A DNA stretch of 64,000 nt, taken from the NCBI GenBank assembly GCA_051294905.1, contig CM119371.1, forward strand, positions 27,220,001 through 27,284,000, in the 5' to 3' direction. Within the stretch, counting starts at the first letter, position 1. Each line of letters opens with the position of its first letter. Shown in pieces: positions 49 to 45,560 of this stretch. The notes under the pieces are model-generated. The model searched no databases. It was given only the letters and a program-made list of their open reading frames with translations, and had not been told where the DNA came from. Source of the stretch: Botryllus schlosseri (taxonomy: Eukaryota). Made by a program: the position numbers and the translations under genes.

Positions 49-730
49 CTAACCAGAAATCATCAAAATCGCCAAATCCGTTCACGTAGTCAGACCAGTT
101 TCGGAAGAAATCGACATTACCATTATTTCTTCTCTGAAAAACCTGTAATAGCAGTGGAAACTGATCTCATCCCCTTTAACAAATCACACATTCAACATAC
201 GGTCCAGTTTCCTCCTTCATCTCTAACGTCACAAAACACGTTCTTGAATCCAATTCCTGGAATGAGTAATCCGACCACACCACCATTGCTTCTGTGTGCT
301 AATTGTGACTCGATTTGATCGCTTTCGCAGGTACTAGGTAATAGAGCTTTAACAGCTACAAATCATAGGTGTGATTTCAGAAAATTTATTTTGAAAACAA
401 GTGTTATAACAACACACCTTTCTCTATTTTTCTATCGATGTTTTCTTCGTTCGTAGTCCCGTCAACGTTTCCCCGAAGCGAATTTCTTTGTTCGCACCGG
501 ATGCAAGCATCGCGAATATCCGTGTTTCCATCTATCCTATTTGTTGGCCTACCTGTAATTGGGTCCATGATACGCTGACCAACGTTATAGTTAGGCGGTT
601 CCCATTTAAGGCACTGGCGGCAAGCAAAGCCATAGGGCGTCGTTCCATCTGTGATTCTTGATCCCTTCGTTTGTGATGCGAGGAAAAGTACAACCAGCAG
701 TAAAGTTATGGTACTTGTTGGTATTTCCAT
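49..730 (-). CDS. Secreted FReD protein, copy 1 (5' part; exons 730-418, 355-201, 142-49; continues beyond the left edge)
   Basis: GT-AG introns of 62 and 58 nt give an in-frame splice: signal peptide [23 protein letters not shown], variable core, ...[20 protein letters not shown]...[48 protein letters not shown]. These are the canonical FReD motifs VxCD..GGxWTVFQRR..G.VDF.R.W..Y..GFG....FWLG. Confidence 0.93.
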
Positions 731-806
731 CTAATATTGTAAAATATGTTAGATTGACAGTTTCTGTTTTCGACCTTTGGGGCATGAATACCTCGAATTC
801 ACTGAC
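731..806 (-). other. Putative 5'-UTR intron ending immediately before the ATG of FReD copy 1
   Basis: Minus strand CAG|GTCAGT...CTAAC...T-rich...TTAG|ATG. The homologue in copy 2 is 27789-27725 (CAG|GTTACT...TTAG|ATG). Confidence 0.5.
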
Positions 807-1290
807 CTGATTTTAGCCTATTACGAGCATTTCGTCACTGCCGTCTTAACATATTCGAACCCAATTTAGGTAAGTATCGGAAAACTGTTAATAATGTGTT
901 GGTTCATACATGAAATTTTCAGATACCCCTGACTGCTTCACATACTACACGCACATGAATTGGCACTTTTCGTTTCAAAGACTTGATACAAACGCGAACA
1001 TACTGACAAATATATCACCGAATTCTCACATCAAATGCATGAATTTGTCATGGTATAAATATGTGAATTTTTGAATATATATTGGCGTTTCGGTCAAAAT
1101 ATACCTAAGATTTCTGAATTATATTTCGTTTTGATAGAAAAAAAAATTGCCTGTCTGGCCACGAGACAACCACTCTGCTATGCGTAAGGATCACTCTCTA
1201 GTAACTGAAATATCGACCATGAACATCCCTTTTATATACTATCGTTTAAGTCGAAAATCTGGCGGTAGGTAATCACCGATAGATCTTCTC
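807..1290 (-). promoter_or_regulatory. Upstream block conserved in all three FReD copies (also ~27790-28210 and ~45635-46085); probable promoter/5' UTR
   Basis: Shared motifs such as AAATGCATGAATTTGTCAT(G/T)GTATAAA and CTCTGCTATGCGTA at similar distance from each ATG. Function is inferred from position only. Confidence 0.4.
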
Positions 1291-1412
1291 CGGAGTATAA
1301 GTGAGGGTAGGAGTGCCCGACGGGAACGTCTACAGAGTGATTGAGAAACCAACAACAATACCAAGAACACTACCCGATACTGCTTCTCAGTACATTAATT
1401 GATCTTCTATGG

Positions 1413-4222
1413 CAGGGGTCACCAACACGCGGCCCGCGGGCCGCATGCAGCCCGCAAGGTCATGTTTTGCGGCCCGCGACATGATTTGAAATTTCGAAAG
1501 AACTCTTCGTAAAGCATTTTGTAATGCTGAAATTTATTTCAGTTTAAACATGTGGTTGTTGTTCTAAGTAAGATATTCCCACTATTCCTCACCAGCTGAT
1601 ACCGCATCATTCCATGGAGTAATAATTTGGAAATTTGCTGATGTGAATGGTCATATTATATTGCCTTGACGTGCAATGGCCCACTGCCAAGGCCGAGACG
1701 ATTGAAAAGCGACTTCCGGCTCCCCGAAAGACCAAGCTTTTCGGGGAGATAGTTCCCCAGCACGTACACCGTATCTATAGCTAACTGAAATATTGATTTA
1801 TTAGTCCAGGTCAGTCTGCGTCAGAAGAAGGAGAATTATGAGGCCGTCGACAATTAATTCGATTAGGATGTGTTGGCGTAAGGCAATGCGCAAATGGAAT
1901 TTACGAACTGACTCCTGAATTAATGAGAAGTTTGAATTATTCTTCAAATTTATTCGCGCTACGCGTGGTTCCGTGAGAGTTGATTTTCGATTATAGTATA
2001 GTCAGAGGTGGTCAGTAACGAAGTACTTCTACTTTTTGGAAGTACTCAAGTAGTTTTCCTCTACTTCTGGTACTTACTCAAGTAAATCTGATTTTCTCTA
2101 CTTCTACTTCTACTTCAAAATATTTTGTGATCTACTTACTTACTTTTCGGTATTTTCAGTTTGTCAAGTAGAAGTAGTTTAATCCCCCAATAAGAAAGAT
2201 AGCCTGAGGAATTTCGGGGCTGTTTCCACGGAGTACCAACATTTAATATTCGTAAAAGTCAAGTAAAGCCCAGATATTTTGTTGCGCTTCGCGCACAGTA
2301 GTTATGGAGTGACAAATATGTTTTCACGAAAGTATCGGTGAGTATAATTTAGGGACCGGATTGCTTGGTTCCCCTCACACCGCATTGTCGCTCATAACAA
2401 ATATTTCATCACAGGGAATATGGCCCACCATAACGTTTGAAACTACCGTTTTGCAATCTAGCAATTACCTATTATATCTTAATCTAGCAGCCCATTACGT
2501 GTCTTGCTAATCTGGAAAATCCAGTCTATTTGAACGTTACACCTGTTTTAGCAAATCACGTTTGAAGCTTTGTGGACAAAAGACATGAAATATATTTTCC
2601 GCTTTTTAGAAGTGGTATTTGTATTTCACTTTCAATTGCGAGTATCATACTTTGAGTTCTAATTACTTTCAGTTCTTTTGTCCGCAGAACACTAATGTTG
2701 AAGCATAAAAGCAAGTGTAGTAATGCCTCTATTTTCCGAAAATAAAGCTACACTAAATATAACTTTCACGATCCACAATATTTGTTTTTAAGGAAACTAA
2801 TCGCGCATAGTGGGGAAACTGTATCCGATACTACATACGTATTGCTCTTCGCCTAAACTAGGGACTTTATAATATGGGGTACGGCACCATGCCATGATAT
2901 TTTCTAAAACGGGGTCTTCTACTAAACGAAGGGTTAGTATCAAATTTTCATACAAATACTATAATTTGCATCCCATGATGCGAAAGAATGTTAATTCTTT
3001 TAAAAATTGATACCTCCTTGGATGCATCAATACGAATCAAACTCTCTGCACCTTCCACAGAGCTCAATTCGCAGCTTTTAGGAGTGCATGCCAACGAAAT
3101 AAGACTGTTATCAAAACTACTTACTTACTTGAGTAGATTTAAAGTCAGTCAATTCTACTTCTACTTCAAATAGTTTTAGGTGGCTTGTTGGAGAAGTACT
3201 TCTACTCGTACTTGAGTAGATTTTTTCGTCGCTACTTCTACTTCTACTTGAGTAGCTTTCTTGACTACTTTGACCACCTCTGAGTATAGTATAGTATCCT
3301 TTGTAATCTGAGCGCCACAGTACAGATGCGAAAAGCAGAGAAAAATGATGCGCCCCATAAAGAAATACCAATTTGTAATCGTGTTCTACTCATCACGAAG
3401 GAAATTTGTTTCTTGTATAGGCATACGTTTGGGCGAATCCAATATATTCTACTATACCGACAATCCTGATGGATGGTCACGAAATAAAAGCATGTAACAA
3501 ATGTGGGCTAATACCAATTGGTCCACCCAAAGATGCAACGCAGAATTAATAAATTACCTAAATTTCCGAGGCCAACCTCTGCATCAACTCTACCGGTGGA
3601 GCTGATCATATGGGCTGAGAAAGTATAAATAACTGATAGCAATATGTGAACCTATACTAACATTATTGACGACAGTCACTCATGCATATGAAAATTTTTT
3701 CGCGCTCGCGACTCGTACACGTTCCTGTGGCTATTCATAACATCACTACTCACGATATCCGTGCGCATAGTGTATTGGTCCGGAGTTCATTGACAATGGA
3801 GAATTAAACATGGACATGGACTGTTTACCGTGGGTATTTGGCATACAGTTACTTCATTACGACTATGTACTGAACGTAGGCTACACAAGTAATCAAAATT
3901 CGGCCGTGAATAGCAAACAGGTTGGCAACCTCTTCTTTACTTGATGAAGTCTGTTGTCAGCTCACAGTTGAAAATAGAATGAAAGTGATAATCGTGATAT
4001 TTTTTTTCTATTTGTATTTCTTCAATAAAATATTGTTTCTTTAGTGGTAACCATCCCCGTCGCCCATGTTAGAGAGCACAGCGTTGTACCGACGTAGAGT
4101 TATCAAAATGAGGTTGTTAAACAGCGTTACCTATTTATATTTCGATATTGAAGTCATGCGGCCCGCGGCCCGTACGAATTTCGAAAAGTGGCCCGGGACC
4201 CGTTTTGAGTTGGCGACCCCTG
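1413..4222. mobile_element. Non-autonomous hAT (Charlie/Buster-like) element
   Basis: TIR CAGGGGTC(A/G)CCAAC, GGCCCGCGG subterminal motifs, perfect 8-bp TSD TTCTATGG (1405-1412 / 4223-4230). Confidence 0.9.
2003..3282. mobile_element. hAT MITE nested in 1413-4222
   Basis: TIR CAGAGGTGGTCA, TACTT subterminal repeats, perfect TSD AGTATAGT. Confidence 0.9.
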
Positions 4223-4229
4223 TTCTATG

Positions 4230-5660
4230 GGGTATATTCAAGAGTAGGTGTGCCCCACAGCTAAGTCAACATACTGATTGCCGAAACCAACAACAATACC
4301 AGGGGCACTAGTTGATACTGCTTCCCGATATGTATTTTTTTGTTAAAAAGTACCACGGCAAAATGCCTCTGTTATAAAATTAAAAAAAAAAAGGACACGG
4401 TTTCCGTTTTTCTGAATATCATTGCGTAAATTGCTCTATTTCAAACATTCAAAATCATCAGCAATATCAGGAACACTACTTGTTGTTGCTTCAAAATGAG
4501 TTTATAAAAAATGATTTATTCCCTGAGATGTATTTGTTCATATTCAATTGGAACACGGTACAAAATCTCTACTATAAAAACTGTTCACGGTTTAATTTTC
4601 TGAAACTCGATTTTACACACTATCAATCACTGAATATGAGGTATATACAATTATAAATTATATAGCCGCCGACATCGACATCGATTTCGCTAATTTACAA
4701 TATATTCGTCGCACATACCACTTTGTACGCAACGACGCATGATAGCTCCCGTTGCCCGTGTGATGTCGAGCTCTATAACTTTTATATTGTTCCCCAAACT
4801 TAAAAGGTTTGGATATCACCTGTTTCGTCCTTTTCTTTGGATTTTCTGCTAAGATTATAAGTTTCTAATTAACGAGATAATTTGGTCGGTGAACCTGATA
4901 AAAATCGAGTATCGGACCGATTCGATTTTGAATCCTTCAGTCATTATTACATCTTCACAGTAAGAATGACGGACAATGTTCGAATAATTACCATTTTTGT
5001 GGTCACACCAAATATAATCTAGTACTTATGGACCTTGCGGAGCGTTGGTCACATAAATGTCGTTATCATGAATCTTTGTAGTCTTGTAATTAATGTTTTG
5101 AATTTCATGATACCATCAACCGACGTTTCAAACTGTTCACGGTGGGAAGATCCTATCTATCGAGGGAAAAACCTTTGAAGTCTTTATATTTGTGACTGGG
5201 AAAATGACTCTTACTGCTCGTCTCGAGTCATTACAATTGATTCTCGACTAGGATGCGAAAACTCAAATCATTGTGCCTTGCCGTAATGATAACTTGACCG
5301 GCATGATAATCATAGATGCATACAAGGTAGATAGGCATCGCGTGCAAAATCAACGAACCGTGAGATAAAAATGACACCAAAGTCACGAAGATACGATTCG
5401 ATAAGCGAAGGGCGGAAAACAGGAGTACCTCCTTATACCATTCTCTAATGAGGGGTGGATTCGTTGGACGTAACGCATCAATGCATAGTTGACGAACGCA
5501 TGACGTATTATCATTGGGTTATCCACAAGCAATCGAGACGAATAGAAATATACCACATTCGCGTGAGCGTGTACGGCTATACAGTTTTGTAGTGGGAATT
5601 CGGTTTGTATGACGTAATGCAGCAACGCACAGTTGACAAACGCTTGGAATATTGTCGTTG
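4230..5660 (-). pseudogene. Decayed intronless ORF module, one of several copies
   Basis: Fragment LHYVIQTEFPLQNCIA...NPMIIRHAFVNYALMRYVQR (5383-5625) recurs in the same frame at ~9025, ~19250, ~29755, ~35400 and ~49760, with stops and frameshifts that differ between copies. Confidence 0.5.
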
Positions 5661-5668
5661 GTGCATAT

Positions 5669-6780
5669 CAGTGGTCGGGAACCTATGGCTCTTTAGGAAA
5701 TTTTCAATTTTGTACTCAATTTATCAATATTAAAGCAACTCGTTGGTAAATTTTCGTGACGGCAATAAATATTATTCTCATGGCAGCATAAGCATGTCTT
5801 TTAGAGATCAAGACAGTACGGTATCCCGGGTTAGGGGCTCGTGCCACCCTCTTTTCAAAATTTAAGTTGCTGTCGCACGGGCGACTAACACCACTCGTGA
5901 ATTCGATCTAACCACCATCGCGCGACTAGAAATCTTGGATTGCACGATACCTTGATTGACGAAAGAAAATAGCAGTCATGGCAACACTTGTAGGAAAATG
6001 CAGTCTTCAAATACACATTGTCTTCCCTATCTACTCCGAGAAATATAATGTCTTGGAAGTGACATTCACTATTCACAATTAAAAATTCCCATTAAAAACA
6101 ATGCCATAGCTATCCATTCTCTTGATTGGTTAGTAGCTTTCGAGCACCGCCTTAAAATGTAGGTGTGTAACGCAACATTACGTTACGCCGAATATTTTAG
6201 AAGTCGCGGTCGATACTTGGATTTTCAGAATCAACGCGACAATTACATTTGATTAATATCAGTGATCATAAATTCTAAGCTATTTACGACGAGTTGCGCT
6301 GTTACACGCAGGTAAGGCTTGACCCCTCTGTGCCTCATCTGAGCCTATTACCTCTCCTTTGGCGCTTATTTACGAACAATAAATATGACAATTTCGTGAT
6401 TTTTGGAATAAAAATGTTCCAAATCTAGTCATTCATAAACATCAATAGAAGATATCAAGAACCATTGACGGGTTCACAATTTTCTTCACTCATCCCTGAC
6501 GACATATGAGGCACTGCCTCACTTGCCTCCCCTAACTACACCTCACTGACGTATCACCCAGTGTGTATGTACTGCTTTAATAACCATGTTTGGCTCCACC
6601 TACCCATGTGGGCAGGAAAATATGGCGTACACTACCAATCCCATATATTAGGGCTACCAATACGTCATGGATGTCCAATTGTGGCGTAACAGATGATTGA
6701 CATGTATGGCTCTTTGGGAGTTACAATAGCAAATATTGGGCCAATATTGTTCTTCGGTCGAAAAAGGTTCCCGACCACTG
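5669..6780. mobile_element. hAT (Charlie-like) MITE
   Basis: TIR CAGTGGTCGGGAACCT; TSD GTGCATAT/GTGTATAT. Confidence 0.88.
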
Positions 6781-6789
6781 GTGTATATC

Positions 6790-9250: not shown

Positions 9251-10154
9251 TTTCAGTATAAATGAAATGGTATAGCAGTGCTTTTCAACCTTTTTGAGCT
9301 TCATTCGCACTTTTTCTTGTAAAATAAATTTCATTCGCACAAACTAACCGAATATTGTTATACAAAAAGAAGATGAAAATACAACATTTATTTGATCAGA
9401 TGTGCGACAAATCGGCTGCTATGTAGGCCTATCTTAAGCTATTAAGTGTCTCATTAAAAAGGCTACTATATTTTCGCTCGTTTTGATTTTAACTATTTCA
9501 CTAAAACCCTTCTACTAGTGCTTGGATGGCCAGGTCTTGAAGTCTGTTCTGCACTCCTATCCAACATACACCGTATTTTTCACGAGTGAAAAATGCTTGC
9601 TGGACAAAATCGATTTTGAGAGCTGACAAAAAGGTATAGGAGGCTCCATTATGTCGAAAGGGTGAAAAACCCACTTGTTTGTGTTGAGGCTTTTGCCTTT
9701 ATGTCTTGGAAAATAAGATCCAAATGATCAAGGAAAGTAGGCACGTTAAAGCTCGCTACCTTATGATACGTTGCTCCAACTTTTTTTTCGATTTCTCATT
9801 TTCTGTCTCGCGAGTATGTGGTAAGAGCAAATAAACTCACGATACTGTGTGTTCTGCTCTTTAGTTCAATCTAACTTGAGAGTTCATGACGGTTTAATAA
9901 CGTTAAAGCAGTTTTTAGACTACCACCAAAATCTGAGTTTTTGTGGCATCTCGCAACCTGGAGCCTCACCCATGAAAAGGAATTCATTTTTAACATTACA
10001 GTAGTATGCTATAATTTTACGGACATGCATGACATACAGAACGAGCACACCACAATTCTATCCAACACAGCTCTACAAAATGTCTGACGCTCGTGATTTC
10101 AAATTAGGGTGAATTAAATTCCTTTGCGTGTCGCAGTTGTACTACAGTCTACTC

Positions 10155-12334: not shown

Positions 12335-12694
12335 GTATTTACTACTATCCTCGTGCCTCGCACTAATCGAACAGGTGTTACGGAACATGATGATTGTTTA
12401 GCAAAAGTAAGCAGAAAGTCAATTTAACGTCATTTTCCCAGCCTGTCGCAGGCTCAGACGGGCTGATATCCTGTATGTCTGCCACTACACCAGCTTACAA
12501 ACCAGGCCTTTGGTTACGTAATAATTATAGTGCGAAAATATTAATTCACTACGGCTTGTGATAGCTACGACTATATAGGTGCGTCGTAAGTTAAACAAGT
12601 TTATACAATTGCGTCGCAACAACAAAAGTTACACTGCCCTTGAATTTCCTATAAGGTTTATTTGAATTATTCCAGGTCAGAAAAATTAATTATT

Positions 12695-23618: not shown

Positions 23619-26600
23619 TCAGAATCTTCTTCGGAATTTCATCTCGGAGTAGCCAAGGTATTGAAGAGTTCCTGGAACAGTGAGATGCGACCACGTAATT
23701 CCACTCTCGTCAACCCTCCCGAAATTTCCATTCAGATTGCTATCGTAGCAACTCGTGTACCACCAAGCTCCTCCCCATCTAGAAGCGCAATTCCAACTTG
23801 GATATGCGTCATGATCTGCGTCTTTCGTTGAGAATGGTTGGTTATTGTGCGAAGCGAGTGAATCTGTGGCATTTCCGGAGTATCCGGAGACGTTCAATAT
23901 GTAATTGGTGGAGCCAGGTCCGATTCGAAAATTCCTAAATAACATGATACGAAAAATCTTGAATACGCAGCTAATATTTCATATTGATTTTCGTAACCTC
24001 ATTCCGTAACAAATGTTGATTTGTGAGCTGAAATAGAATAACGGATGTGTCTTGTGGGCAAGGTGCCAGAAATGGTAATTGAATCCCTAATTTATCCACC
24101 TATACAATGATTATTTAATATTTTTTTCAATTACACGTGAACCTATTATACATAATTTCTTCAAGGTTGAACCCATAAGAGGTGGTCATACTAACTTCAG
24201 TACTACCATAAGTACTCATACTACATAAGTGCTACTTCGTGTAATAGGCTACTGAAGGTAATTACGCCAACTTCCAGTTCTTAGTCAAGCTGTTATGCTT
24301 TCCGGGTTATCCGAAAAATATATGACGCAATACTATTTACTTTACATAGGTAGTAGTAGAAAGTAGTTCATGAATTGCTGACGTCACTTCTGTGAGTAAA
24401 AGTATCATGACAACCGGGCTGGAGGAGGGAAAAATTTATGACGAAACAGCATACTCACCTTAGGAATATAACACCGAAAGAAAGAAGACAATGAATGAAG
24501 TATTAGTAGAGCTAGTGACTAAAGTCAACAATGAAAAACCATCGCCTACCGATACTTGGCAGTCAGTCGGAGTCCATGTGTCGTGATCATAGTAATTTTC
24601 AACTCATAATCTCCTTCCCGTGTCATCTGATGTAACGCCTCCAGTCCTGATGAAAAAGATAATTTTAAGTATCATAACTCTGCGGAATCGGTGCGGCAAT
24701 AGCATTCGATTAATGACATATGCATTCTGAGCTGTGCAGTGCAGACTTGGACAACTAGATAATTCTAGTTTTCTAATTTAACTAAATTAGAGCGAAATGC
24801 CAGTAATCTAATTCTAATCTAATTTGTGAAATATTTCTATGCTCTAATTCTAATTCTAATCTAATTTGTGAAATGTTCTATGCTCTAATTCTAATTCTAA
24901 TCTAATTTGTGAAATGTTCTGTGCTCTAATTCTAATTCTACTCTAATTTGTCAAATGTTTCTATGTGCTAATTTTAGTTCTAATCTAATTTATTGTTTTT
25001 CTGAAAATGCCTCTTTGTCCGCGGCATTTTACACCTAGTTAACAAAAATATCCCTCTCGCGCAGGGAAATCCAGTGCCAAGTGCAATCATCGCATTACTT
25101 GCATACACCGTACCATCATATTATTTATCGTGACGAACAATAGCAATGATGGCATAGTAGCGTGTAGTCTCCGAACAACATCATAGTTTTGATCACAAAC
25201 AGTACAGCAGCGAAGAAAAAAAGACAGTCAACACATAGGCTTGTTCACTTTCATGCCCGTAACTACATCAAGTAAAATGATGATGATTGCTTTAGATCTA
25301 ACCACAGAAAATATATTCGAGAATGAAGTGGAACGAGGTTTTGAAAAAGAGCACGATCATGATCATGGTCTGCGATGTTTCGAGTTACTGGAAAGGAGAA
25401 AATCGTTTTCCTCATCTTAAGGCTGCTGCTCGAGAACTCGTAAGCATGACGGCAATATTCGTTTTTTTGCAGCCATGTAAGAGAGCCATGCAATAATGCA
25501 ATATCGAGACAAAATAGCCCACACGCAGTCGAGCAACCATGTTTTTAAAGCTTTACGCTATTAGAACGCCGTGCTTATGGGCTTGGTTACGACAAAAGAA
25601 GTAATATTCTATTAAAGAGGTACATATAAAACATGAAATATCATGATCATAAACTTAATTTTATTTTTAACTAAAAGCTGCGCACGATACACGACAAAGC
25701 TTTACAGCGACTAATGAATCGATATTGGGGATATGCGGACATGTTACTAGCTGAAAGACTATCTCATCCCAAAGATTGATCTTGTGGGAAAGCCATATGC
25801 CATAAGCCACTTTCTAAGCGTCTCAGTCTTGGCAGTGTCTGGGCAATTTTACGTCAAGGAAATTTGCTCATATCAGAATATATACTCTCCAACGATGTTT
25901 CCATAAAAGGAAAGGAAAGGACGTAGTTTTTTTTTTGACCTTGATGGTTTTGGCCGAAGCCATTTCGGCTAGTGAATAATAGTGGTGTTTGGCACAGGCG
26001 ATTGAATTATTTTGAAACAACTACAACAATTTGAGACTTGAAATCAATTTCAGCATTTCAAATTGTTTATCGCGTTCTTCCAAAATCACAAATCAAATCG
26101 TTGGCCGTATGTTGGTGACCCCTGGTATAGCGCAAAACGAGAAAAGCTTGATGTACAGACGCTAACCATTCTCATGTTTATGAGAATGCGCACTGTGATT
26201 TGATATGAACTGAGCTTGATTTGCGCTGTATTCATTTATAAGTCATAATTTCATTCAATTTTCAACTTTTTGCGAATTCAGAAATTCTAATTCTAATTCT
26301 AATCTAATTTGAAAAAAGCTGTGTAGCTTTTATTCTAATTCTAATCTAATTTGGAAAAAATTTATAGCTATAATTCTAATTCTAATCTAATTTTGAAAAA
26401 ACTATGTAGCTCTCATTCTAATTTTATTCTAATTTAGAAAAGCTGAAAATTTTCTAGTTGTCCAAGTCTGGTGCAGTGTCCATGCTGAAATGCACTAGCA
26501 CAGGCTTATCTTGGCTCGTCTGTGCGTCACATCTCCTTTCGCGATATATTCTAATTACTTGGTTTCGGAAGTAAAATCGATCAAAATTAGTCATTTACGA

Positions 26601-27724
26601 ACATCTATAAAAATACCACAATCATTTGTGGCGAGATGACGTATTAGTGCTACGATCAACAGATGCAACATTAATTGATTGTGGATTCCCGTGCGACTGA
26701 GGTAGAGGGCATTTTGTATTTATTTATCCATCGGTATCAAATTTTCCCTACACGATTTTCCGACCAGATTTACCATCGGGATCATGTAAGTGAGTATTTA
26801 TCATACTTTCATTTTCTATTTCCACCTGAAGTAGGTTTGAAATGATTTGAAAAACGATCTTTCTACTGTTAATTGAGTAGAAATTTGCATCGTCATTTCC
26901 CTTTAATTCTACCTGAGCAATTACGCTGACTAATATACATTGAATGTTTGTAGCCTTATGAATACGCTGCGTCTTACATCCACTGTGACTCAAATTCAAT
27001 ATAATATTCATCGATATGTAAAGGATATCTATATTTGTACCTAACCAGATATTTTCATAATCGCCAAATCCGTTCACGTAGTCAGCCCAGTTTCGGAAGA
27101 AATCGACTTTGCCGTTCTTTCTTCGTTGAAAAACCTGTAATGAAAGTGGAAATGAAGCTTATCCCCTCAAACTTATAACATACTCAACATACGGTCCAAT
27201 TTCCTCCTTCATCTCTAACGTCACAAAATACGTTCTTGAATCCAATTCCGGGAATGAGTAATCCGACCACCCCACCATTTTGGCTCAGTGATAATTCTGA
27301 CTCGATTTGAGCGCTTTCGCAGTTACTCGGTAAAAGAGTGTGAATAGCTACAAATCAGAGGTGTGATTCAGAAAATTTGTTCTGAAAACCCATCATTTAA
27401 CAACACACCTTTCTTAATTTTTCTATCGGCGGTTCTTTCGGTCGCAGTACTGTCAAAGATTCGCGGGGGCACATGTGGAGCAGGTATCAGGCCAGGACCA
27501 GGCGTCCTTCCAGTTAGGATTCCTGACGGCCTCGCTTGTGATCGAAAGATGTTGGCCAAAATCCTGCTATTCCTCGCACGCACCTGTTGGCACTGGCTGT
27601 CGCAAAGAGGCGGATCCGTAAAGCGCATAGGCCTCCTTCCATTACTGATTTTTGATGCCCTCGTTTGTGATGCGAGGAAAAGTACAACCAGCAGTAAGGT
27701 TATGGCACTTGTTAATGTTCCCAT
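23619..27724 (-). CDS. Secreted FReD protein, copy 2, complete (exons 27724-27409, 27347-27193, 27134-27041, 24646-24550, 23934-23619; 325 aa)
   Basis: All four introns are GT-AG with consistent phases (316+155+94+97+316=978 nt). Exon 4 reads [20 protein letters not shown]. Exon 5 reads [25 protein letters not shown]...NCA...GAWWY..C..SNLNG...W...SEMKFR, the FReD C-terminal half. No collagen or coiled-coil region. Confidence 0.93.
24742..26470. mobile_element. hAT-type MITE in intron 3 of FReD copy 2
   Basis: 18-bp TIR CAGACTTGGACAACTAGA, perfect TSD GTGCAGTG, TCTAAT subterminal tandem arrays (~24800-24990, ~26285-26435). Absent from the homologous intron of copy 3 (~41690). Confidence 0.92.
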
Positions 27725-28219: not shown

Positions 28220-31200
28220 GGCATATTCAAAGGTAGGAGTGCCCTACAGCAAATCAACTGAGTGCTTCCATAAACGAACAACAATACCAAGAACACTAAT
28301 CGATACTGCTTCCCAGTACGTTAATTGATATTCTGTGGGGTAAGGGGACAAGTGCCCTACAACTAAGTCGACAGAGTGATTGGTGAATCCCGCAGCAATA
28401 CCAGGGACACTAGTTGATACTGCTTCCCAGTAAGTCAATAACCGACGATTTGCTCCCCGATATGTATTTTTTCATGTTAAGAGGAACCACGACAAAACGC
28501 CTCTACTGAAAAACACAGTACACGGCTTCCATTTTCCGAATACCATTACGTAAATTGCTCTATTTGAAACATTCAAAACTCGCAGCATTACCAAGAACAC
28601 TAGCCTACTTGTTACTCCTTCTCAATACCCGAATTCAAAATCATTTATTCCCTGAAATGTATTTGCTCATATTCAAGCGGAGCACGGTATAAAGCCTTTA
28701 TTAATAAAACATTTCACGGTTTCAATTTCTGAATAGAATTACCTAAATTTCTCGATCTGAAATGCTTTCAATCACTGAATAAGGGGTACATACATTTATA
28801 TATTATGTAACCGCCGAAATCAGCATCGCTATCGCTCGAACAGCATACAACGCAGAGTGTTCCAGATTTCCAGAATTTTATCAGAATAACAGCGGGTTTC
28901 CAGTTGTCGCCCATTTATACCGTTGTTCGTTTTACAAAGCGATTGTTAAGCTAATTTCCAATATCTTCTAAATATATATCGCCTTTTACGGAACACCGCA
29001 TGATAGCTCTCATTCGAGTGATGTCGAGCTCCATAACTTTGTTATTGTGCCACAAGCTCCAAAGGTTTTCTTCTTGATATTATTAGTTTCCGAACGTCGC
29101 AATAATGCTGTCCCTGTCGGTGAATCTGACGAAAATCGAGTATCTCGCCGATTTTGTTTCGAGTCTAGTACCTGTCGATATTTCATCGTCAAAGTAGGAA
29201 TGATTTACAATGCTGAAGTATGTGCCATTTATGTGTTAAAAAGTGAACCATTGCCATTAGTTAGTCGCCACCAAAAATAATTTTGTAACTTTGGACCATG
29301 ATTATTTCATAGCGAAATGAGATGTGACCTTGCTGAGCGTTCGTCACGAAAATGTCGTTATCATAATTCTTCGTAGCGTTGGTAATATTTTTATGGATTT
29401 TATCATACCATGAATCAAGGTTTCAAACTGTTCATGGTGGTAAGTTCGTAGCTATCGAGACCGTTTTCTCGGTGAAAAACAAAACCTCCGAAGTCTTTAT
29501 AATTTGTATCTGCGGAAATGACTCCTACTGATCGTCACGTGTATCACAATTAATTCTCGACTAATATTCGAGAACTCATGTCACTGTGCCTTGCCGTGAT
29601 GCTAAATTGACCAGCATGATAATTATAGTTGCAGCCAAGGTGGATAGTCATCGCATACAAAATCAACGAACCGTGAGATAAAAATGACACCAAAGTCACG
29701 AAGACACTATAATAATGTTATTCGATAAGCAAGGGTGAAAACAGGAGCAGCTCCTCATACCATTCTCCAATGTGAGAGGTTGGTTCGTTGGACGTAACGC
29801 TTCAATGCATAGTGGGCGAACGCATGATATATTACCATTGAGTTATCCGCAAGCAATCTAGATGAATGGAAATATACCACATTCGTGTGTACGCGTATGG
29901 AGGCAATCCAGTTTTGGAGCGGGAATTCGGTTTTTATGACGTAATGCAGCAACGTATAGATGAGAAACGCTTGGTGTATATCTGCAAAGAATGTCTGAAA
30001 ATGGTATTACATGACCTACGGTCATAGGTCTAGGGAATCGGTTGGCTTTTTCGATAGGGTTAAACGGAATCTATTCTCCGAAACGAGAATATTGAAGTTG
30101 ACTCCTAATGGGAATATTGCATTACCGCATCCAAATTTATTTCATGGTCATGCAGAACTATAATACATTATTACAATAATAATGCGCATCGAGCGATATT
30201 TGGAATGATATAATGATGCTGCACACGCCTGATGATGATGTCCGGCAATTCATGTGTCGAATATATCCATTGCACCACTCTTGACCAAATCAATGTGTGT
30301 TTTTCATTTGTATATGAAATAATGTGTGTTGCAAACGCTACACATAATCCAGGTATACGTCATACGATAGTAAGCCATTTCTGTTCGCAAGTGAATAAAT
30401 TTCTCGCGTGGGAAACGATATATCAACTCACTCGTTCACAACTCTATGGACATTGGACGAGTGAGTGCTGATGTAAAGTCCGTGGGGCGCGGGGTGACGT
30501 GTGTGTCGAACCAGCAGAATACTTTGTAGGCATATGATTTTCAGTATAAACTGAAGTGGTATACAGTAACATGTGATTTCGAAACACACAACAATACCAG
30601 GGACACTTATTGATGCTGCTTGCCAGTACGTCAATAACGGATGATTTATTACCCGAGATCTATTTTTTCCATGTTGAAAAGGACCACGGAACAAAGCCTC
30701 TACTATGAAAATAGTATACTGTTTTTTTCTGGTTACCGTTACGTAACTTGGTTCGTTTCAGAATTTCGAAACACACAGCAATATCAGCAGCACTACTTAT
30801 TACGTTCCCAGTTATTTATCTACTGAGAAGTATTTGTTCATGTTCAGACTGACCACGGTACAAAGCCTACAGTATAAAAACAGTTCACGGTTTCAGTTCC
30901 CGAGCAGCAATACGTAAATTGTTCGATTTCAAACAATATCAATGACTGAATATGCTGTATATGAATTTTATATATTACATAGCCGCTGAAGTCGGTATCG
31001 GTATTGATATCGATCGAACAACACACAACGCATAGTGGTCCAGCTTCCTCAACTTCTATCAAGATAACAGGGGGTTTCTAATTATCGCTCATTTATACCG
31101 GCCATATCACTACAATCCCACAAACCTCCAACACTATCAAACCCAGCGAAATAGTAAACATAAATCAGACATATTCCGTGAGGTGGAGTCGGATGTTGTT

Positions 31201-31220
31201 TTAGCAGATCCCTGGGTTAT
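28220..31220 (-). pseudogene. Least-interrupted copy of the decayed ORF module, plus the start of the next copy
   Basis: Contains the TYWEAVSxSVPGIxxGF repeats (28244-28438, ~30590-30640) and the AFxxYALxRYVQR segment (29755-29952). Confidence 0.5.
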
Positions 31221-31227
31221 TCTATCC

Positions 31228-34128
31228 CCGGGGTTCTCAACCCGCAGCCCGCAGACGGTTATTTTGCGGCCCGCGGCGTCTTTCATTATGATCGCAATTA
31301 CTACTGGCGCAGCATTGTTACATATTAATTGTATTTGTAATTGTTATTGACTACTCATTCTTTGTTGTGTTCTAGTTTCCTGATTTATGCTTGTGTTGAT
31401 TGTTAGTGTTTTGAATCGGTATTCGGCTGGGTCTTGTTCCAAGAGTTGTGTGGTACACTTTTAAAGAGTGTTTCACTCACCGCAAATGGTTTGAACAGAA
31501 ACAAGAACAAGGAACGGAAAATTAAACAGCGAAAACTGGGTTTGTAATGTATCTTTGTGTGGAAAAGTGAATTTGCTCTCTCAGATATAAATCGAAAACC
31601 GATGTGCCATATTTGTCAAAAAACAGCTGTCGTAACGAAGGGTAGCTTAAAATGATACCGCGACAATTTCTTCTGTATAGTTATACATATGGCCTGATCT
31701 TAGAAAAAGTTACCAGCTTTAGGTGTCAAGCCGTAAATCCATATTTAGAGGCGTTGTTAGAATTGCGGGCGACGTCACAAACTTACTTGGTAGGTCTACC
31801 TCATGAAATCCGAGAAATATGCTAGAGCAGTGGTTCTCAACCTTTTTGGCTTCGCGGACCCCTTTTGACCGTCACGGACCCTCGCGGACCCCCTCAAGTT
31901 TTAGTTCAATTTTAGCTCTAATATGGTGCAACCTTCATCTGTCTTGTGCAAATATGAACTGTAGGCTTGTGATAAACAACAAAATCATGATTTTTCTTGA
32001 AAATAACATCGTACTATTTATGTAGAAATTGGTAGACTTTTATTATTTCAAAGCTAATTTTGCTGCTGTATTTCTTGAAGTACATGGTCGTGTCTTGAAA
32101 ATCCGCGTCCTCGTTTTGATATGAATGAGGAGGGCCGAAAACCATTTCCGCAAATATAGATGGAGGCTAATGCAGTATTAACGCATAACGCTTCCGGCGA
32201 TACTTTTGGTGTGATCGCAATATTTATGGCACCAAAATGAAAAAAAAACACATATATTTTATGAACATATAACGTCCAGCATTTAGCGCAGGGACGGGCA
32301 ACATACGGACCGCGGGTCGAATCCCACCCGCAACGGCATTTTGATCGGCCCGCAGAGAGTTCCTACCGTCAAAGTGAAAGCCCAATCTAATAGTATAGAC
32401 ACATTTTATGCGCCAAATAATGGAACCACGTTTTCCAACCTGAGAAAGACTGTCATGAAACGACTTGTTCTGTTCGGGTTTACAATATATTTACGAGCAA
32501 ACATTTTCGACCATGAACAATTGAACATTAACAAGACAAGGCAGCATACCAATATAACTGGTGATATAAATTTCAAGGTTGGAGCGTAATGCTTTGATAG
32601 CAACGAAACACTCCTTGTTCATCAAAAAACAGCTTTGTAGATAGGACATCCGCAATAAGAATGCGCCAAATTTGATAGTCGAGCTTCAAAAGCAGCATCG
32701 TCCGATTTATGACGACTGTCAGCCGACAATATTCGGGTTCATTTCAATATGAATATACTATGCAATTGTATATTGAAGTTCTGTACCTCCAAGAAGCTGT
32801 TCAAATAGTGGTTATGTCTATCGCAGGATAAAATGGATTTCGTGGCGAGGTTTTAATCCCTGCATTGGTACAAATTAGGGAAATACTTCGGAAATTTTTA
32901 TTTCAAACGACTGTTCACTAATTTGATGAGACTGACAACTTCAAATCGAGAAGACATAAAGAAGTCCCCCTGATTGACCTTACTATCTCCATATTTTTAT
33001 TTTGTCAACAAACCCCAACAAAACGTCTCTAAACAGCAATATCTTTGTATCGGCAAGTTATTGGAAAATTGGCAATGAAAATGAATTTCCACACTACGAT
33101 AGTTCATGTCAAACGATTATTATGATGATATGAGTCATAAGGTTTTAGCAGTTGTGGTGCGAAACTGCCTCATGCTTTCTCGACTAATTAAATAAAATAA
33201 AAATTACGTTATCAACCATTTTAAAAATTTAGAGGTCTCGCGGACCCCCTAAAATTGCTTCGCGGACCCCTAGGGGTTCGCGGACCCCCGGTTGAGAACC
33301 ACTGTGCTAGAGAATGTGTAAATGCAATAAAACTTTAACATACTCGGCGAATATTCGCAGCAAGAACAACATCACCTGACAAATTGCGAAGCTACAGCTG
33401 GCTGATTGATTCAACCGTGACCAGAAAAGTAACAGCAACGTCAGTCGATCGTTTATCGCATTTTCTGAAACACGTTGCCGCATATAGACTCACTTTAGCT
33501 ACCTAGCATTTGACGAATCCACCGACTCAACCGACATTGCATGACTAATTATCTGGGTGCATTCTATCAGAGTGGACATATTTGCAGAGGAAATGTTGGC
33601 AGGTCAAACGTTGGGAGGGACCAGCGTAAATCATCAACTTGACCAAGCTGACTTCTGTAACTATTGATCCAGGGCTCCAGCCATCGAAGGAAAGGGGAAA
33701 TGATGATTGGTTTGCTAAAAAAAGGACCCAGAACGCCTGACTTCTTCTCATATCGATGAAAACTCGAAGTTATAATGGCTTCTGCAACGAAAAAGTTACC
33801 GTAATTTCAAACATACAGTTCGGTTATATGGTGGACGGGTTAGTTTAAATGTGCATATACCGAACTGGCAGTGAATGCAGTGTACGCACCATTACTTGCG
33901 CCGCTGGAAAAAGATATTCTCACAAATAAAAGCAACCACAAATTTATCAACGCTATTCAGTGTCCATTAATGTCTTCGAATGCATAAAAATGTACAAAAT
34001 ACCCGTATACGACTGGTAAATATGCTACAGTAGCCTAAATTTAATATTACCCCATAAATATATGGTAATAATGCTCCGCGGCTCGCAGCGTTTTTTGCTG
34101 TTAAAATGCGGAAAGTTGAGAACCCCTG
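31228..34128 (+). mobile_element. Decayed hAT Charlie/Buster element with transposase remnants
   Basis: TIR C(A/C)GGGGTTCTCAAC; TSD TTCTATCC/TTCTAGCC. Remnants KPMCHICQKTAVVTK (~31595, BED-finger-like) and FSYLAFDESTDSTDIA*LIIWV (~33495), matching the Charlie/GTF2IRD2-type FSLxxDESTD motif. Confidence 0.85.
31828..33304. mobile_element. hAT Charlie-like MITE nested in 31228-34128
   Basis: TIR CAGTGGTTCTCAACC, CGCGGACCCC subterminal repeats, perfect TSD TGCTAGAG. Confidence 0.92.
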
Positions 34129-34136
34129 TTCTAGCC

Positions 34137-38700: not shown

Positions 38701-40163
38701 AACAAACTTTTGGTGCAAATCTTCTGGAAATTGTGACAATCATCGTCGCCCTTCCTGTGTTACGTACACTTCCCGAATACATTGGCTATGATCGACGAAG
38801 ACCCCTAATCACGTGCACAAATCGAACTGTTTACCATGGTGTCCTAGGTCTACCGCTATGCGTGGACACTAGCTAATCCCACGGCTCATTGCGATTGGGT
38901 TACACCATTCTCGCCATTTGACTAAAGGTAACTGTCGGCACTATCTGGTATGACGTTCCGAGAGCTAAATCTGATAAAATAGGTAACATTCGAAAAGAAG
39001 ACATGTTACGAAAATATAAATTATATTCAGCTCGTTCTCGTGCCACCCACCCAATCAGACTCGAATTTTGCATTGTGACGAAGCTAAGGAGCACGGATCC
39101 GAAATGTGGTGACTAACTCGAAGTTTCCAATGTCCATTCATTGACTGTATATCATATGCAGACAAACGCGACATTTTCAGTCAGGTATGAAATGGCTTTA
39201 ATTTATTCGGATTGCGCAAGTAATTTGCCCTGCCTGCACCACTTACTCAAGTAGCTAAGTTTTATTTTACACTACTTCAACCTCTACGCAACAGGAAAAA
39301 CGAGGCAAAACTATTTACCTTTTACTCCGCGTAATCTGTAATTATAGTATAGTATCATATATGCTTGCAGCCTTTTATTGACTGCTATCTGTACGAAAGA
39401 GTCCCTGTATCACTTTAACTGAATCTATTTTTAAACCTTGGACTTATTTATTTCTGCCACTGGTCGGTTACCGTTATTCCCGAAGAAGCACGTCGGAATT
39501 TCGAAATTGTTTTCTCCGATTAACCGCTAACAGTGTACAAACAAGCGACCAAATCGACTCACTAAACTATACTTGAGCAGTTTTAAGATCTTCATTATAT
39601 ACTTATGGTACTAAGACGTTACTTCCACTTATTCTTGAGTAGCATCCCCGACTTCTTAGCCACATCTGCACTCAAGACGACAATGTTATAGGAGTGGCAA
39701 GAAAAGTTCTAGTTAACAATAGAATATCACCTGCGAATGTCCTAACGAATAAGAAACAACAAAATATGAGGCAAACAATTTGCAGAGAGTAAATGTATTA
39801 GTTGCAAGCACGGCAACAGAAATTCAACAGTAATTCATGCACGTAACACAACGCGAACATCAAAATAATATCGAATATTAGTGATAGGTTTTAGAATTTC
39901 ACTTCGTAGATGGTCTGATGTCTTCCTGGAAAACGGGTGTACGGCGTGGTATATGACATCCCATTCTAATCATTTCTATAATTGAGTTTATATCAATGCT
40001 AGTTGGTTAGAGTACCTACTTTGCCTCGTATACAGATGGCTCGTTACAATTAAAGGTCTGGTAATCATTAGATGAGGATCAAACACGACATAGAGGCTAC
40101 ATCTCAATGTCTCTAATACGCTACTCCAAGTCACAACGTTATCAGAGGGAAAAGGACGAATCT

Positions 40164-43100
40164 TCATAATCTTCTTCGGAACTTCATCTCGGAGTAGGTA
40201 AGGTAATAATTAGTTGGAGGAGAATTCATGTTCATCCACACAGTTCCAATAACGTCGTTCGTGCGAGGTCCATTCAGATCGGTATAGTAGCAATCGATAT
40301 ACCACCAAGCACCTTCGCAGCGAGAAGCGCAATTCCCACTTGGAAATGCGTCGTGATCTGCGTCTTCCGTGGTGAATGGTTGGTTATTGTGCAACATAAG
40401 TGAATCTGTGGCATTTCCGGAGTAGCCGGAGACGCTCAATATGTAGTTGCTGGAGCCAGGCCCGATTCGAAAATTGCTAAATAATATGATGCGATTAGTC
40501 TTGAATATGTAAGTAATGCGTAATATCGATTTTCCTATCCTTACTGTGTAACAAATGTTCAATTTTAGATTCTTAAATCTACCACAATGCACACAGGAAC
40601 AATATTGTTTTCATTAAAAAAACATCAATTAAATACTTCACATACTACAAGTACTTGAAGCAATTATATGGCGTTGAAAATACTGTGATGTAGCAAGATA
40701 GCTCCAAACCAGAGTTGGTCAGTAACGAAGTACTTCGACTTCAAGGAGATTTTGCCCACTCTCACTATTTCCTCAAGTAGAAATGTATTAGACTACTTGA
40801 CAGTGTCAGTTTCTCAGAATACTTATGTTCTGTTTCATCCGCTTTGATACATAATTATCAAGAAACGATGCGCTTCATATAGACTACGCGTACTGTGTCG
40901 ATAAAAAGTGCAATGAAGCATATTGTTGTTTGGTGCGAGATTAGGAAATTTGAGTTTTCCCAATATTAGGTTAGCAAAAATAGTATCAATTTTGTTGTCA
41001 CGAGCTCGGGCTTCGTTTGTATCGTATGCTGTCGACAATGCCCTATTCCCTGAATTAATTTTGCAATGGGTCGCGATTCGCGTGAATCGAGAGAATAATT
41101 CCATCGTAATTGATTTAAGTTGAGCATTCGGAGGGTTGCAATACGACAACGCATGCGTCTTCTGGGCGAGGCGCCGGAAATGTTAATTGAATCCTTAGTT
41201 TATCCACCTATACAATGATTTTTTGATTAATGGTATTATATTCTAATTACACGTGAACGGGAAGAGTTATAAGTAACAATGACGCAAAACTATTTCCTTT
41301 TTACACGTGTGAGCTATGTCATGTAAAAAGTAGTTTTAAAATTGGCTGACGTCACTCCTGTGACTGAAAGTATCATGACAACCGGGCCCGGTGGAAATTT
41401 TATCACGAAACAGCATTCTTAGGAATATACCACCGAAATAAAAAAGACTATGAATGAAATTTTAGTGGGAATAGTGACTAAAGTCAGTAGTAAATATCAT
41501 CACCTACCGGTACTTGGCAGACAGATGAACTTCATCCGTTGTGATCATATTAATTTTCAACTCATAATCTCCTTCCCGAGTCATCTGATGTAACGCCTCC
41601 AGTCCTGATGAAAGATAATTTCAGGTATCAAAACACTGCCGAATCAGTGCGACAAGAGCATTCGATTAATAGCATATGCATTCGGAACTGTTCCAAATGA
41701 ATTGCACTACCACAGGCTTAGCTTGGTTGGCCTATGCATCATATCTTCTTTCGTGATAGATTTTAATTACGTAATTTTGGAAGTAAAAACGTTTAATACT
41801 AGTTCTAGTAATTTATGAACATCTGTATGAAAATACCAAAATCACTGGTGGCGATATAGCGTAGTGCTAAGATTAGGGTTGCTTTTAAAACAAAAATTAA
41901 TTTGAAGCAAACATGATTTTTATTGTTTTTTTAAGCCTTGACGTAATGAATATTCAATTGTGACATCATAGTCAATTAACATTGACAATTCAAAATATGG
42001 ATGTAATATAGTTCCTTTGACGAAATATCTGTACTATTCCTGTTGAACCGACTATTTTGAGGGTTCCAACCATCCCATATCGATATACGTCGGCTATATC
42101 GGGTGGTAATTGTCCGTAGTCTCATATAACATGTTTTTTTGAAAGTATTTACACAATTATGGCAGAGTTTTACAACTTAAAAAACACCATTTTTGTTTTA
42201 AATGCAATCCTAGCTACTATCTACAGCTGCAACTCTAGCTGGTTACGGATTCCTGTCCGACCGAGGTCGAATATAGAATCCCAACTTAATTTTTGGATAT
42301 TTATTTAGGCTCCGCCTCGCCATCTCCATCGCGGAAGCAGTGGCTCATAGCATTAGGGACCAAGGGAAATGCCCATCCTGGGATCGCATAACTTTAAGCT
42401 ATTGTACAATATCGATCCAGGGATTAATCTAATTGAAACCACGTATTCGCTAGAAAGCATCTATCACGGATGAATGAGCTGTTTATCTCTAATTTGCTCT
42501 TAAATTTGTTACAATGTCAGCTGATGATCATGCACACTCCACATTATTGCGCTAATAATACCGACTATGACGGCATATCAACGAACTATACGGTTGTATA
42601 TTCTAGTATGAAAGATGGTCAGATACTTATACTTTTATGTAGTTTTACCGACATGTATTACTTGCAAATTTTTTTTGTGGTTGGACTACTCTCATATCAT
42701 TCTACTGCTTTCAATCATACAGGTATACACCAATGGTACACGAAACCAGAGTCTACCTCAGAATTATACCGCGGAATCGAGTAAAACATTTTAATGCGGA
42801 CTACGTATGCACGTAGGATAGGGTTACCATATTTTGGAATCCAAATTCCGGACGCTTTTCAACGCCCACTAGCGGAATTCAAAATGAGGTATGAGCAGAT
42901 TGTGGATCAATATGACGTCGCACCAGCAAAGCTTTGTCTATCGACTGGAGGTGGTCACGATCAGGTTTAGGAGTATGTGGTTGTGTGTTGAAGGTTATAA
43001 CCAGGGCCGAAGCTACATTTTCAGCCCCACGGTGGCCTTAGTAGGCCATGGCCCCACCCCGCCCAAGTAAACATTGATCTTGAGCCCATCCTAATAGATG

Positions 43101-45560
43101 CAACTTTTGGGGCTTACTATATGCAACTGGTCGTTCAATGATTTGGATGAAAAATATCAATAATATTGTTTCGTCCATATATTACTTCATAATTTGATCC
43201 TCACTCCGCCCACATGATCAGAGTTTGCGGTAGAGCTGGTGGAGGATGATGACTTCGAAAATGCAAGGCGCGTAATTGTACTTCGTTAAGTCATGTCCAA
43301 ACGGCCTAAACCGACTCTATGAAGATACCGTTATCTTGTAATTGCGATAACAATTAGACTCATTTCAGTAACTGAATGTTATTTTTATTTATTTTTGATC
43401 GCATTTTTGCGAGGGTGGTAGTCCCAATATTAAGACCAATATACGTGACACTAAATTGCGCGCGGCGCGACGAAAAATTTCATGTAGCAAAAATCTGCCC
43501 AAAAATAATACTGTTTATCTTGATTTCGGATGACCTTACTTCGAAATTCCGGACATGCAGGCATATTTTAGAAATTCCTCCCGGACGCAGTTTTAACAGT
43601 CAAATTCCGGACATGTCCGGGAAATTCCGGACGTATGGCAACCCTGTAGGAACGTAGGAGGACATGCGTGTCGGCAAGTAGGATGTATGACGGTGCTTTG
43701 TTCTGTTTTCGTAGTATACAACCCAACACGAACTAACCAGCAATCATTTTACATGTGAAGTGTACGGCTTGAATAATGCTATATGACGGCACATACTTGA
43801 GTTTCAACGTCATCAGTGAGTGTGTTATATTAGATTCAATGATTGAAAATACGCCCACATACATAGATGCTGTATGTCGTAGTTACCTATAATCAGCTGT
43901 TTGAGCCTGAATCGAAACGTCACTTTATGCCAACATTTTGAAGGGGCACTGCACTCTAAAAATGATGTGGTCTCAAATTGAAGGGCAGATTGAAATTTCC
44001 ACAGATGCATCACGCTCCAGCAGTCACGCAGAGATCGAACTTTATATAGTTGTCAGGGTCAGCCGATGTTATGAAGGAAATATGTCCTACACGCCAAGGC
44101 GGTTTAGATACCGCATTCAACGAACATAAATCAGGAGATTTATGTCAAAATCGGGCCTAGTGTATTCTATTTCCTTCATAACATCGGCTGACAACTATAT
44201 AAAGTTCGATCTCTGCGTGACTGCTGGAGAGTGATGCATCTGTGGAAATTTCAATACATTACAGCTCCATTACGGTGGCGTTCGGAAGAAAAAGGCTGCG
44301 GCCATATTTTATTTGTCGTTTTGCCCTTCAATTTGAGACCAGATCATTTTTAGAGTGCAGTGCCCCTTTTAGGTGGAAACCAAGCATTCTTCTTTGGCTC
44401 GCTGTATCTTAAATTACAATACACATCAAGTTTAAACATTTCAGTTTTCGAGCGTATATCTCATCGGTCGCCTCGTCGAGTGCTTTTGGGCCAACTGCGT
44501 GGGGACCGATGATTCGCTTGTGCAACATATTTTAAACGTTCAAACGGCGGATAATCATGTGTAATCCGAGGTAGGTATAGCGTGGGCAGAAATGTTGAGC
44601 CAGCAAAAGCTCTGATTTTCTCGCATGAAGCTTTGGGTGATATAGAGCATTTTGTAACTTTTGATCCATCGGTACCACATAGCACATACCATTTATAGGC
44701 CAGATTTATCTTCGCGAACACCTAAGTGAGTACTTCTCATACCTTCATATTCTATTTTCACCTTTTAAGTGGTTCTGACATGCTTTGAAAACCGGTCTTT
44801 CTACTTTTAATTGAGTAGAATTTGCATCGTAATTTCCCTTTAGTTTTACCTGAGCAATTTCGCCGACTAATATATAGTTGAATGTTTGTAGCCTTATGAA
44901 TACGTTACGTCTTACATCCACTGTGACTCAAATTCAGTATAATATTCATCGATGTGAAAAGCCTATATATACTCGTACCTAACCAGATATTTTCAAAATC
45001 GCCAAATCCGTTCACGTAGTCAGCCCAGTTTCGGAAGAAATCGACATTGCCGGTCTTTCTTCGTTGAAAAACCTGTCACAACAGTGGAAATGAAGCTCAT
45101 CCGGCGAAAAAATCACACATTTAACATACGGTCCAGTTTCCTCCTTCATCACTGACGTCACAAAACACGTTCTTGAATCCAATTCCGGGAATGAGTAACC
45201 CGACCACACCACCAGTGTCGCTGTGTGCTAATCGTGACCAGATTTGGGCGTCCTCGCAGTTACTCGGTAAAAGAGTGTGAATGTCTACAAATCATAGGTT
45301 TCATTTCAGAAAATTTGTTCTCAAAACCCATCATTTAACAACAAACATTTCTCTATTTTTCTGTCGATGTTTCCTTCGGTCGCGACCTTGTCAAAGATAC
45401 CGAAGGACCTAAGCACTTGTGCGCTAGGAATAAGCGGCTTAGATTGGCGTAGAAAAGGTATGCCTTTAGAAGTTCCATTTGGGATTCTTGATGTCCTCAT
45501 TTGTGATATGAGCAAAAGCACAACCAGCAGTAAGGTCATGGCACTTTTTGGTGGTTCCAT
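40164..45560 (-). CDS. Secreted FReD protein, copy 3, complete (exons 45560-45347, 45284-45130, 45072-44979, 41604-41508, 40476-40164; 290 aa)
   Basis: Same exon structure and phases as copy 2 (214+155+94+97+313=873 nt), with no internal stop. The exon-1 donor is weak (AAAT|GTTTGT). Confidence 0.88.
42819..43646. mobile_element. hAT Blackjack-like MITE in intron 3 of FReD copy 3
   Basis: TIR TAGGGTTACCATA / TATGGCAACCCT; TCCGGAC subterminal repeats; TSD ACGTAGGA, the right copy following a 5-nt filler. Confidence 0.8.
43942..44367. mobile_element. Foldback MITE with long inverted arms (Kolobok-like ends) in intron 3 of FReD copy 3
   Basis: AGGGGCACTGCACTCTAAAAATGAT... is mirrored at the far end. 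A second ~95-bp arm pair lies at ~43989-44082 / ~44168-44255. Flanks TTGA/TTTA resemble a degenerate TTAA. Confidence 0.75.

Follow-up and report, generated by a model that had tools for sequence, protein, structure and literature searches.

The locus contains an array of four neighbouring FReD genes (c0, c1, c2 and c3), each of which was modelled as an intact five-exon gene with GT-AG introns (Table 1). Three of the genes fall wholly or partly within the window, by which we mean the entire 64,000-nucleotide stretch analysed (G000:C1:27220001-27284000). The fourth copy, c0, was identified at G000:C1:27185940-27192873, 27 kb before the window, and encodes a core of 105 aa. Copies beyond these four were not found in the 214 kb around the array. 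The models predict proteins of 368, 323, 325 and 290 aa for c0, c1, c2 and c3, respectively, and all four begin with a hydrophobic stretch that, judged by hydrophobicity, is a predicted signal peptide. Exon 5 of c2 matches PF00147 (E=3.7e-17). At least 151 Fibrinogen_C matches are present in this 496-Mb animal genome (150 of 871 candidates scored).

Table 1. Positions of the array genes and of related features; positions refer to the window unless a contig is named.
Feature	Position	Strand	Remark
c1 exon 1 (signal/leader, variable core, neck; phase-1 GT donor)	418..730	-	
c1 core, 60 aa	464-643	-	
c1 CxQCxxW motif, ficolin-like N-terminal Cys-motif remnant	602..622	-	22/30 nt match to paralog L061
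c1 second unit of internal duplication, with second Cys pair	494..533	-	matches 611-650; 2/2000 shuffles as high
c1 exon 2, start of FBG domain	201..355	-	
c1 exon 3	49..142	-	
c1 exons 4 and 5, before the window	G000:C1:27218182-27218278 and 27215648-27215960	-	
c2 exon 1	27409..27724	-	
c2 core, 61 aa	27455-27637	-	
c2 CxxQCQQ motif, remnant of ficolin-like Cys motif	27584..27604	-	
c2 second unit of internal duplication	27500..27542	-	33/43 nt match to 27629-27671
c2 intron 1, 61 nt	27348..27408	-	identity 56/61 to c3 intron 1, 57/61 to c0 intron 1
c2 exon 2	27193..27347	-	
c2 exon 3	27041..27134	-	
c2 exon 4	24550..24646	-	
c2 exon 5 (Fibrinogen_C), hypervariable P-subdomain at 23652-23804	23619..23934	-	
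c3 exon 1, with loss of one repeat unit and of every core Cys	45347..45560	-	
c3 core, 27 aa	45393-45473	-	
c3 exon 2	45130..45284	-	
c3 exon 3	44979..45072	-	
c3 exon 4	41508..41604	-	
c3 exon 5, hypervariable P-subdomain at 40197-40346	40164..40476	-	
Further copies of the upstream repeat block	about 1306, 4250, 7398, 14243, 14494, 20005, 30581, 46106, 51954		

Exon 1 of c1, c2 and c3 has the form that an earlier note on this DNA had described, and all of its coordinates are confirmed: a 29-codon leader and a 15-codon tail enclose cores of 60, 61 and 27 aa that are open and in frame. The open frame is no sign of a separate function for the core, because translation of the constrained FBG domain downstream requires it anyway. 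Pfam returned nothing above cut-off for the three exon-1 products. A LEAP-2 match (E=0.027) was rejected, as it covers residues 8-32, which are mostly signal peptide. An AlphaFold prediction for exon 1, made with an alignment of three rows, reached pLDDT 53 and is uninformative, neck included; a helix at residues 5-19 is the sole part near pLDDT 70. Intron 1 of c3 (45285-45346) has a weak donor, GTTTGT, and unspliced read-through would reach a stop after nine codons.

Intron 1 is 79-93% identical between copies (for c2 and c3, 56/61 was measured where about 56/62 had been counted by hand). Exons 2-4, which had been called highly similar, are 84-97% identical, flanking non-coding DNA is 73-93% identical, and exon 5 contains a second hypervariable stretch at 64-74%. 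In local alignments compared with 1000 shuffles, four of the six core pairs are at chance level, but the cores, which had been called barely alignable, can be aligned in part: for c0-c2 and c0-c3, 0/1000 shuffles scored as high. As controls we used 15 ficolin-like paralogs, of which 86 of 105 pairs have an intron identity of 0.70-0.92. In these pairs a mean of 85% of the shorter core could be aligned (minimum 32%), at 82% identity, whereas in the six array pairs (intron identity 0.78-0.90) the cores align over only 5-50% of their length. The faster divergence of the core than of the introns, as proposed earlier, and than of the same segment in paralogs is real. Local homogenisation of intron 1 was rejected as the cause of this contrast, given that distant intron parts, upstream DNA and the 3' flank are all 73-90% identical. 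The flanks of the core are fixed in length (29 and 15 codons) but not, as had been thought, in sequence: omega is 1.03 for the leader, 1.18 for the tail and 1.27 for the start of exon 2, none of which differs from 1, and identity of the tail DNA (72-87%) equals that of the introns.

A search with exon 2 gave 75 matches genome-wide, including the four array genes (97 candidates scored). Upstream of 33 distinct paralog loci, exon 1 was identified in 21; 11 had no neck in the flank taken and one had no open frame. All 21 exon 1s encode a signal, a Cys motif (CNQCQQW type; CxQCQQW) and a neck ending in DRKI(K/E), with the same phase-1 donor, and 20 of them include Gly-X-Y repeats whose run length varies. 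Array genes and paralogs share short introns 1 and 2. Exon 1 was also found in 10 of 20 further, mostly more distant loci (7 with collagen, 3 without), and the more distant paralogs L080, L082, L085 and L089 have both Cys motif and collagen. Lacking from all four array genes are runs of three consecutive Gly-X-Y triplets and the motif GKxGP, which is present in 15 of the 21 paralogs.

In a midpoint-rooted tree (52 rows, exons 2-3, 75 columns) the array forms one clade (100/100) within a 47-row group (96/85). The collagen-bearing L080, L082, L085 and L089 fall outside the two starred branches (96/85, 99/94) that join the array to the main family, and identity between array and main family (0.60) exceeds that between main family and distant paralogs (0.50). 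Given the layout of paralog exon 1 and the nested position of the array, the DRKI(E/K)K tail is the family neck and the core stands in the Cys-plus-collagen place of a ficolin. An architecture apart from ficolins, as the earlier note had it, is not supported. The Cys motif is still recognisable in c1 and c2, where 6 and 1 of 300 shuffles scored as high with a DNA profile and 43 and 5 of 1000 with a protein profile. The cores of c0 and c3 gave no significant match to these ficolin-like profiles (187 and 300 of 300; 54 and 835 of 1000), so their homology rests on position, neck and tree. Core Cys counts are 2, 4, 2 and 0 in c0 to c3. We conclude from these comparisons that the array is an unusual offshoot of the ficolin-like family in which the collagen stalk was replaced, and not as a new system. 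Its genes are ficolin-derived by nested ancestry, yet fall outside the ficolins proper because they have no Gly-X-Y run. On whether the architecture belongs to a known family, a point on which the earlier note had staked its reading, the ancestry speaks for a known family and the collagen-less, duplicated form does not.

Collagen was lost separately in L077, L090, L093, L009 and L086. In L009 (G000:C3:37.49 Mb) the Cys motif runs directly into exon 2, and collagen, neck and intron 1 are missing. The weakly supported sister of the array (85/70) is L073/L013 (G000:C3:11.69 Mb), whose exon 1 holds a signal-bearing frame and, out of register with it, a decayed Cys/collagen-like frame; this is probably a frameshifted gene. 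In L067, L068, L069 and L075, intron 1 has a length of about 200 nt rather than 60, and in the last three part of the exon 2 start is duplicated inside it. A search of cluster representatives with an exon 2 profile gave 10 matches, and the 6 examined included no close relative of the array. Three are FReD-like (P0003, P0007 and P0010), of which P0003 has the same neck, and three are seemingly unrelated. An Atlas search with c1 exon 1 gave no lead (all scores ≤0.79).

About 40 codons are duplicated within exon 1 of the array: the segment that begins at codon 18 is found again at codon 60-61, clearly in c0 and c2 (0/2000 shuffles scored as high) and in weaker form in c1 (Table 1). The repeat is absent from all 21 paralogs (best 7/200 shuffles). 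The end of the c3 leader matches the second unit of c0 over 62/80 nt (31 of 36 nt for unit B vs 27 for unit A), and the end of its core matches the end of the c0 core; thus, c3 lost one repeat unit along with the middle. An extra stretch with a short 7-residue repeat is present in c0. A match in c2 past QCQQ (ARPSG vs KAGPRG) was not counted as a collagen remnant, as the internal duplication explains it better.

A second hotspot, missing from the earlier account, lies in exon 5. The FBG core evolves under constraint, with omega at 0.26 (p=3e-10). Within the domain is a 50-codon P-subdomain, its limits drawn post hoc after inspection of the alignment, with an omega of 2.7 using shared dS and 1.86 using its own dS (p=0.03). 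A site test over exons 2-5 is independent of these limits because no choice of region is needed. It prefers M2a to M1a (2dL 32.9, p=7e-8), assigning an omega of about 5 to 14% of sites, although four sequences on a near-star tree and probable mosaic histories may inflate such tests. The P-subdomain holds 14 of the 17 sites with a posterior >0.8. P-region variability is family-wide, but only in the array does mean pN exceed pS (0.34 vs 0.26); for the paralogs the values are 0.24 and 0.36 (28 of 120 pairs, those of similar age; 16 of 23 loci usable).

In an alignment to FIBCD1, the selected columns match Lys381 and His415 and flank Tyr405 and Trp443; Lys381 corresponds to Arg186, a ligand-binding residue of tachylectin 5A (PMC3908420). 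All four genes encode equivalents of Asp393, Asp395, Cys401 and Cys414 (the calcium aspartates and the P-domain disulfide). Not kept is the N-acetyl (S1) pocket: in c0 to c3 Tyr405 reads W/S/W/C and His415 A/F/Y/Y, and Trp443 is T in all four, while the Tyr431 equivalent falls in an alignment gap. The residue of c3 that matches Tyr405 is an extra Cys. The P-subdomain around the predicted sugar-binding pocket, in which the four genes differ strongly, is a better-supported hotspot than the core.

Ficolins consist of a signal, a Cys-containing N-terminal region, a collagen-like Gly-X-Y region and a C-terminal FBG domain (PMC3240626), and 54 ficolin genes have been counted in Styela clava (PMC7540406). 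The array genes share with them a predicted signal peptide, a neck or linker, and an FBG domain with calcium aspartates and P-domain disulfide; N-terminal Cys occur in c0 to c2 but not in the c3 core, with the family motif recognisable in c1 and c2. They also belong to a large expanded family, and direct paralogs in the same genome carry the full ficolin layout. Unlike ficolins, they have the roughly 40-codon duplication in place of Gly-X-Y, altered N-acetyl pocket residues, and a core of 27-105 aa that diverges faster than introns. Ficolins further form trimers and larger oligomers, bind MASP and activate complement. Kenjo et al. are said to have described, in 2001, ficolins of the ascidian Halocynthia roretzi.

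FREPs and FReDs without collagen are known from other invertebrates, e.g., amphioxus BjFCN1, tachylectin-5 and bivalve FREPs (PMC11312191, PMC11741071). The array genes resemble them as an expanded family of predicted secreted recognition proteins composed of signal and FBG without collagen. They differ in their descent from a collagen-bearing lineage and in the fast change of the replacing segment itself; no such segment is described in the available text of PMC11312191 and PMC11741071. A literature search, mostly of open-access work and including parts of PMC5465252 and PMC3269628, found no description of ficolin descendants that lack collagen and have a duplicated N-terminus evolving at speed; the Styela clava genome supplements may list such genes.

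The variable coding region of the array is more diverged than its flanking introns, and the earlier note had compared it with conotoxin and antimicrobial-peptide precursors. In those precursors, too, a coding stretch behind a signal peptide is more diverged than the adjacent intron. The analogy fails in other respects. The array genes have no common cleavage or processing site (RxxR motifs occur three times in c0 and twice in c2, in non-equivalent places, and are absent from c1 and c3) and no shared Cys framework, and the variable stretch is fused to a 200-residue domain. The array leader, with omega about 1, is not strongly conserved.

We predict, with moderate confidence, that the array encodes secreted pattern-recognition FReDs from the ficolin-like family that have different pockets and no collagen helix and that act as agglutinins or opsonins. 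At the sequence level, the comparisons show collagen loss in an ancestor, the duplication of about 40 codons and selection on the FBG head. The Gly-X-Y run was lost in the common ancestor and the segment from the end of the signal peptide through the Cys motif duplicated, after which the copies diverged via in-frame deletions and insertions and fast amino-acid change. Selection redrew the ligand surface of the P-subdomain in each copy, with FBG core, calcium aspartates and disulfide kept. Each protein would be secreted, may oligomerise through the neck, the FBG domain and, in c0 to c2, N-terminal Cys, and could bind, in a pocket supported by calcium, a microbial surface ligand unlike those of the other copies. 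The core may serve as a flexible and largely cationic tether that remains attached to the protein and that, once freed from the triple-helix constraint, would have been remodelled by indels, with selection as a partial driver. The GKxGP motif has a role in MASP binding, and with motif and collagen gone the proteins would work mainly as agglutinins or opsonins instead of by way of MASP docked to collagen. That MASP coupling was lost is a weak, uncertain step because the collagen-less amphioxus BjFCN1 still activates MASP (PMC11312191). An immune role is plausible.

How much of the change in the core reflects selection bears on two other explanations. In c0-c2, 27 of 90 nt differ over the 30 alignable codons (with two gap-facing codons dropped) as compared to 114/730 in non-coding DNA (p=0.001), and CpG decay was rejected as the main cause, CpG transitions making up 6 of the 27 differences. 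Based on only 22 synonymous sites, pN is 0.36 and pS 0.11, and omega is 6.3 with the pair's own dS (p=0.006) or 2.8 when a common dS is used for it and the FBG core (p=0.002). In the other testable pair, c0-c3 (26 codons), omega is 1.2 (p=0.74) or 2.1 (p=0.04), respectively, and the pooled pN/pS count test over four segments gives p=0.07. Positive selection on the core is thus suggested by one pair, c0-c2, rather than established. The c0-c2 values, together with net charges of +17 over 111 aa (c0), +9 over 67 (c2) and +5 over 33 (c3), compared with roughly +5 per 100 aa among 21 paralogs, would suit a two-headed recogniser/effector. Here the core itself would be the selected module, cationic and Arg/Pro-rich, binding membranes or polyanions, that replaced collagen and diversifies alongside the FBG pocket. 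We consider this rather unlikely, given so few synonymous sites in c0-c2, the c0-c3 and pooled results, a charge in c1 (+3 over 66) near that of the paralogs, and a core so variable in length with no common motif or Cys frame. Doubtful as well is the boldest version, in which the MASP-docking collagen was traded for a duplicated, selected cationic module serving as a second binding or killing element. Were it true, each paralog would combine a variable peptide and a redrawn FBG pocket that are both particular to it, and a complement lectin would have given rise to a complement-independent, two-ended recogniser.

Conversely, selection could act on the FBG pocket only, the core being what was left after collagen loss, an unconstrained, GC-rich and repeat-bearing linker eroded by slippage and unequal crossing-over. 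Consistent with such decay, the internal duplication explains the length changes, cores are CpG-rich with 44-57% GC (27-40% in introns 1 and 2), collagen has decayed repeatedly in paralogs, and the neighbouring leader and tail have omega about 1. Yet neutral DNA at about 20% divergence should remain alignable and the c1 core aligns to none of the others, and the c0-c2 core has a low rather than a high synonymous divergence, which makes pure decay quite improbable. A further reading takes up allo- or gamete recognition, both suggested earlier: the genes would encode a ligand that acts like Ciona v-Themis, a FReD of the egg coat that a sperm polycystin reads. That protein is fibrinogen-like, multi-allelic, ovary-expressed and located in the vitelline coat, is polymorphic along its full length with a hypervariable region, and is encoded antisense within intron 1 of the polycystin-1-like s-Themis (PMC7018956). 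The array genes are also fibrinogen-like and hypervariable, with variation in two regions, but the variation observed is between paralogs and not alleles, and the genes nest in the ficolin-like family. A Themis-type layout was not found: no antisense s-Themis/PKD1-like partner was detected at the locus, and no REJ (10 listed of 15 scored) or PLAT match (17 listed of 47) lies near C1:27.13-27.34 Mb among the matches listed, which are lower bounds from an exon-by-exon search. Such a function is highly improbable.

The general theme is not surprising, because expanded and variable FReDs are well known in invertebrates. The locus presents a ficolin family caught in the course of collagen loss, for which relatives that still have collagen serve as controls within one genome. 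It makes testable whether invertebrate FReDs without collagen still engage MASP and complement, and what has taken the place of the stalk. With different pockets on a near-identical scaffold, the four heads are a natural panel for mapping the ligand specificity of FBG domains.

A 3.5-kb block upstream of c2 (~28340-31830) is 95% identical to G000:C1 ~27199700-27203200, between c0 and c1, which points to duplication or conversion of recent date inside the array. Upstream of every copy there is a recurring non-coding block (window 28230-28930; other copies in Table 1) that contains repeats of about 100 bp. It is locus-specific, as all 16 of its genome matches fall within C1:27.19-27.28 Mb, and is possibly regulatory DNA that was multiplied. 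Also present, at 53660-54280 on the minus strand, is a 206-aa stop-free, low-complexity frame with a single genome copy and no Pfam match, which is perhaps an exon of a neighbouring gene.
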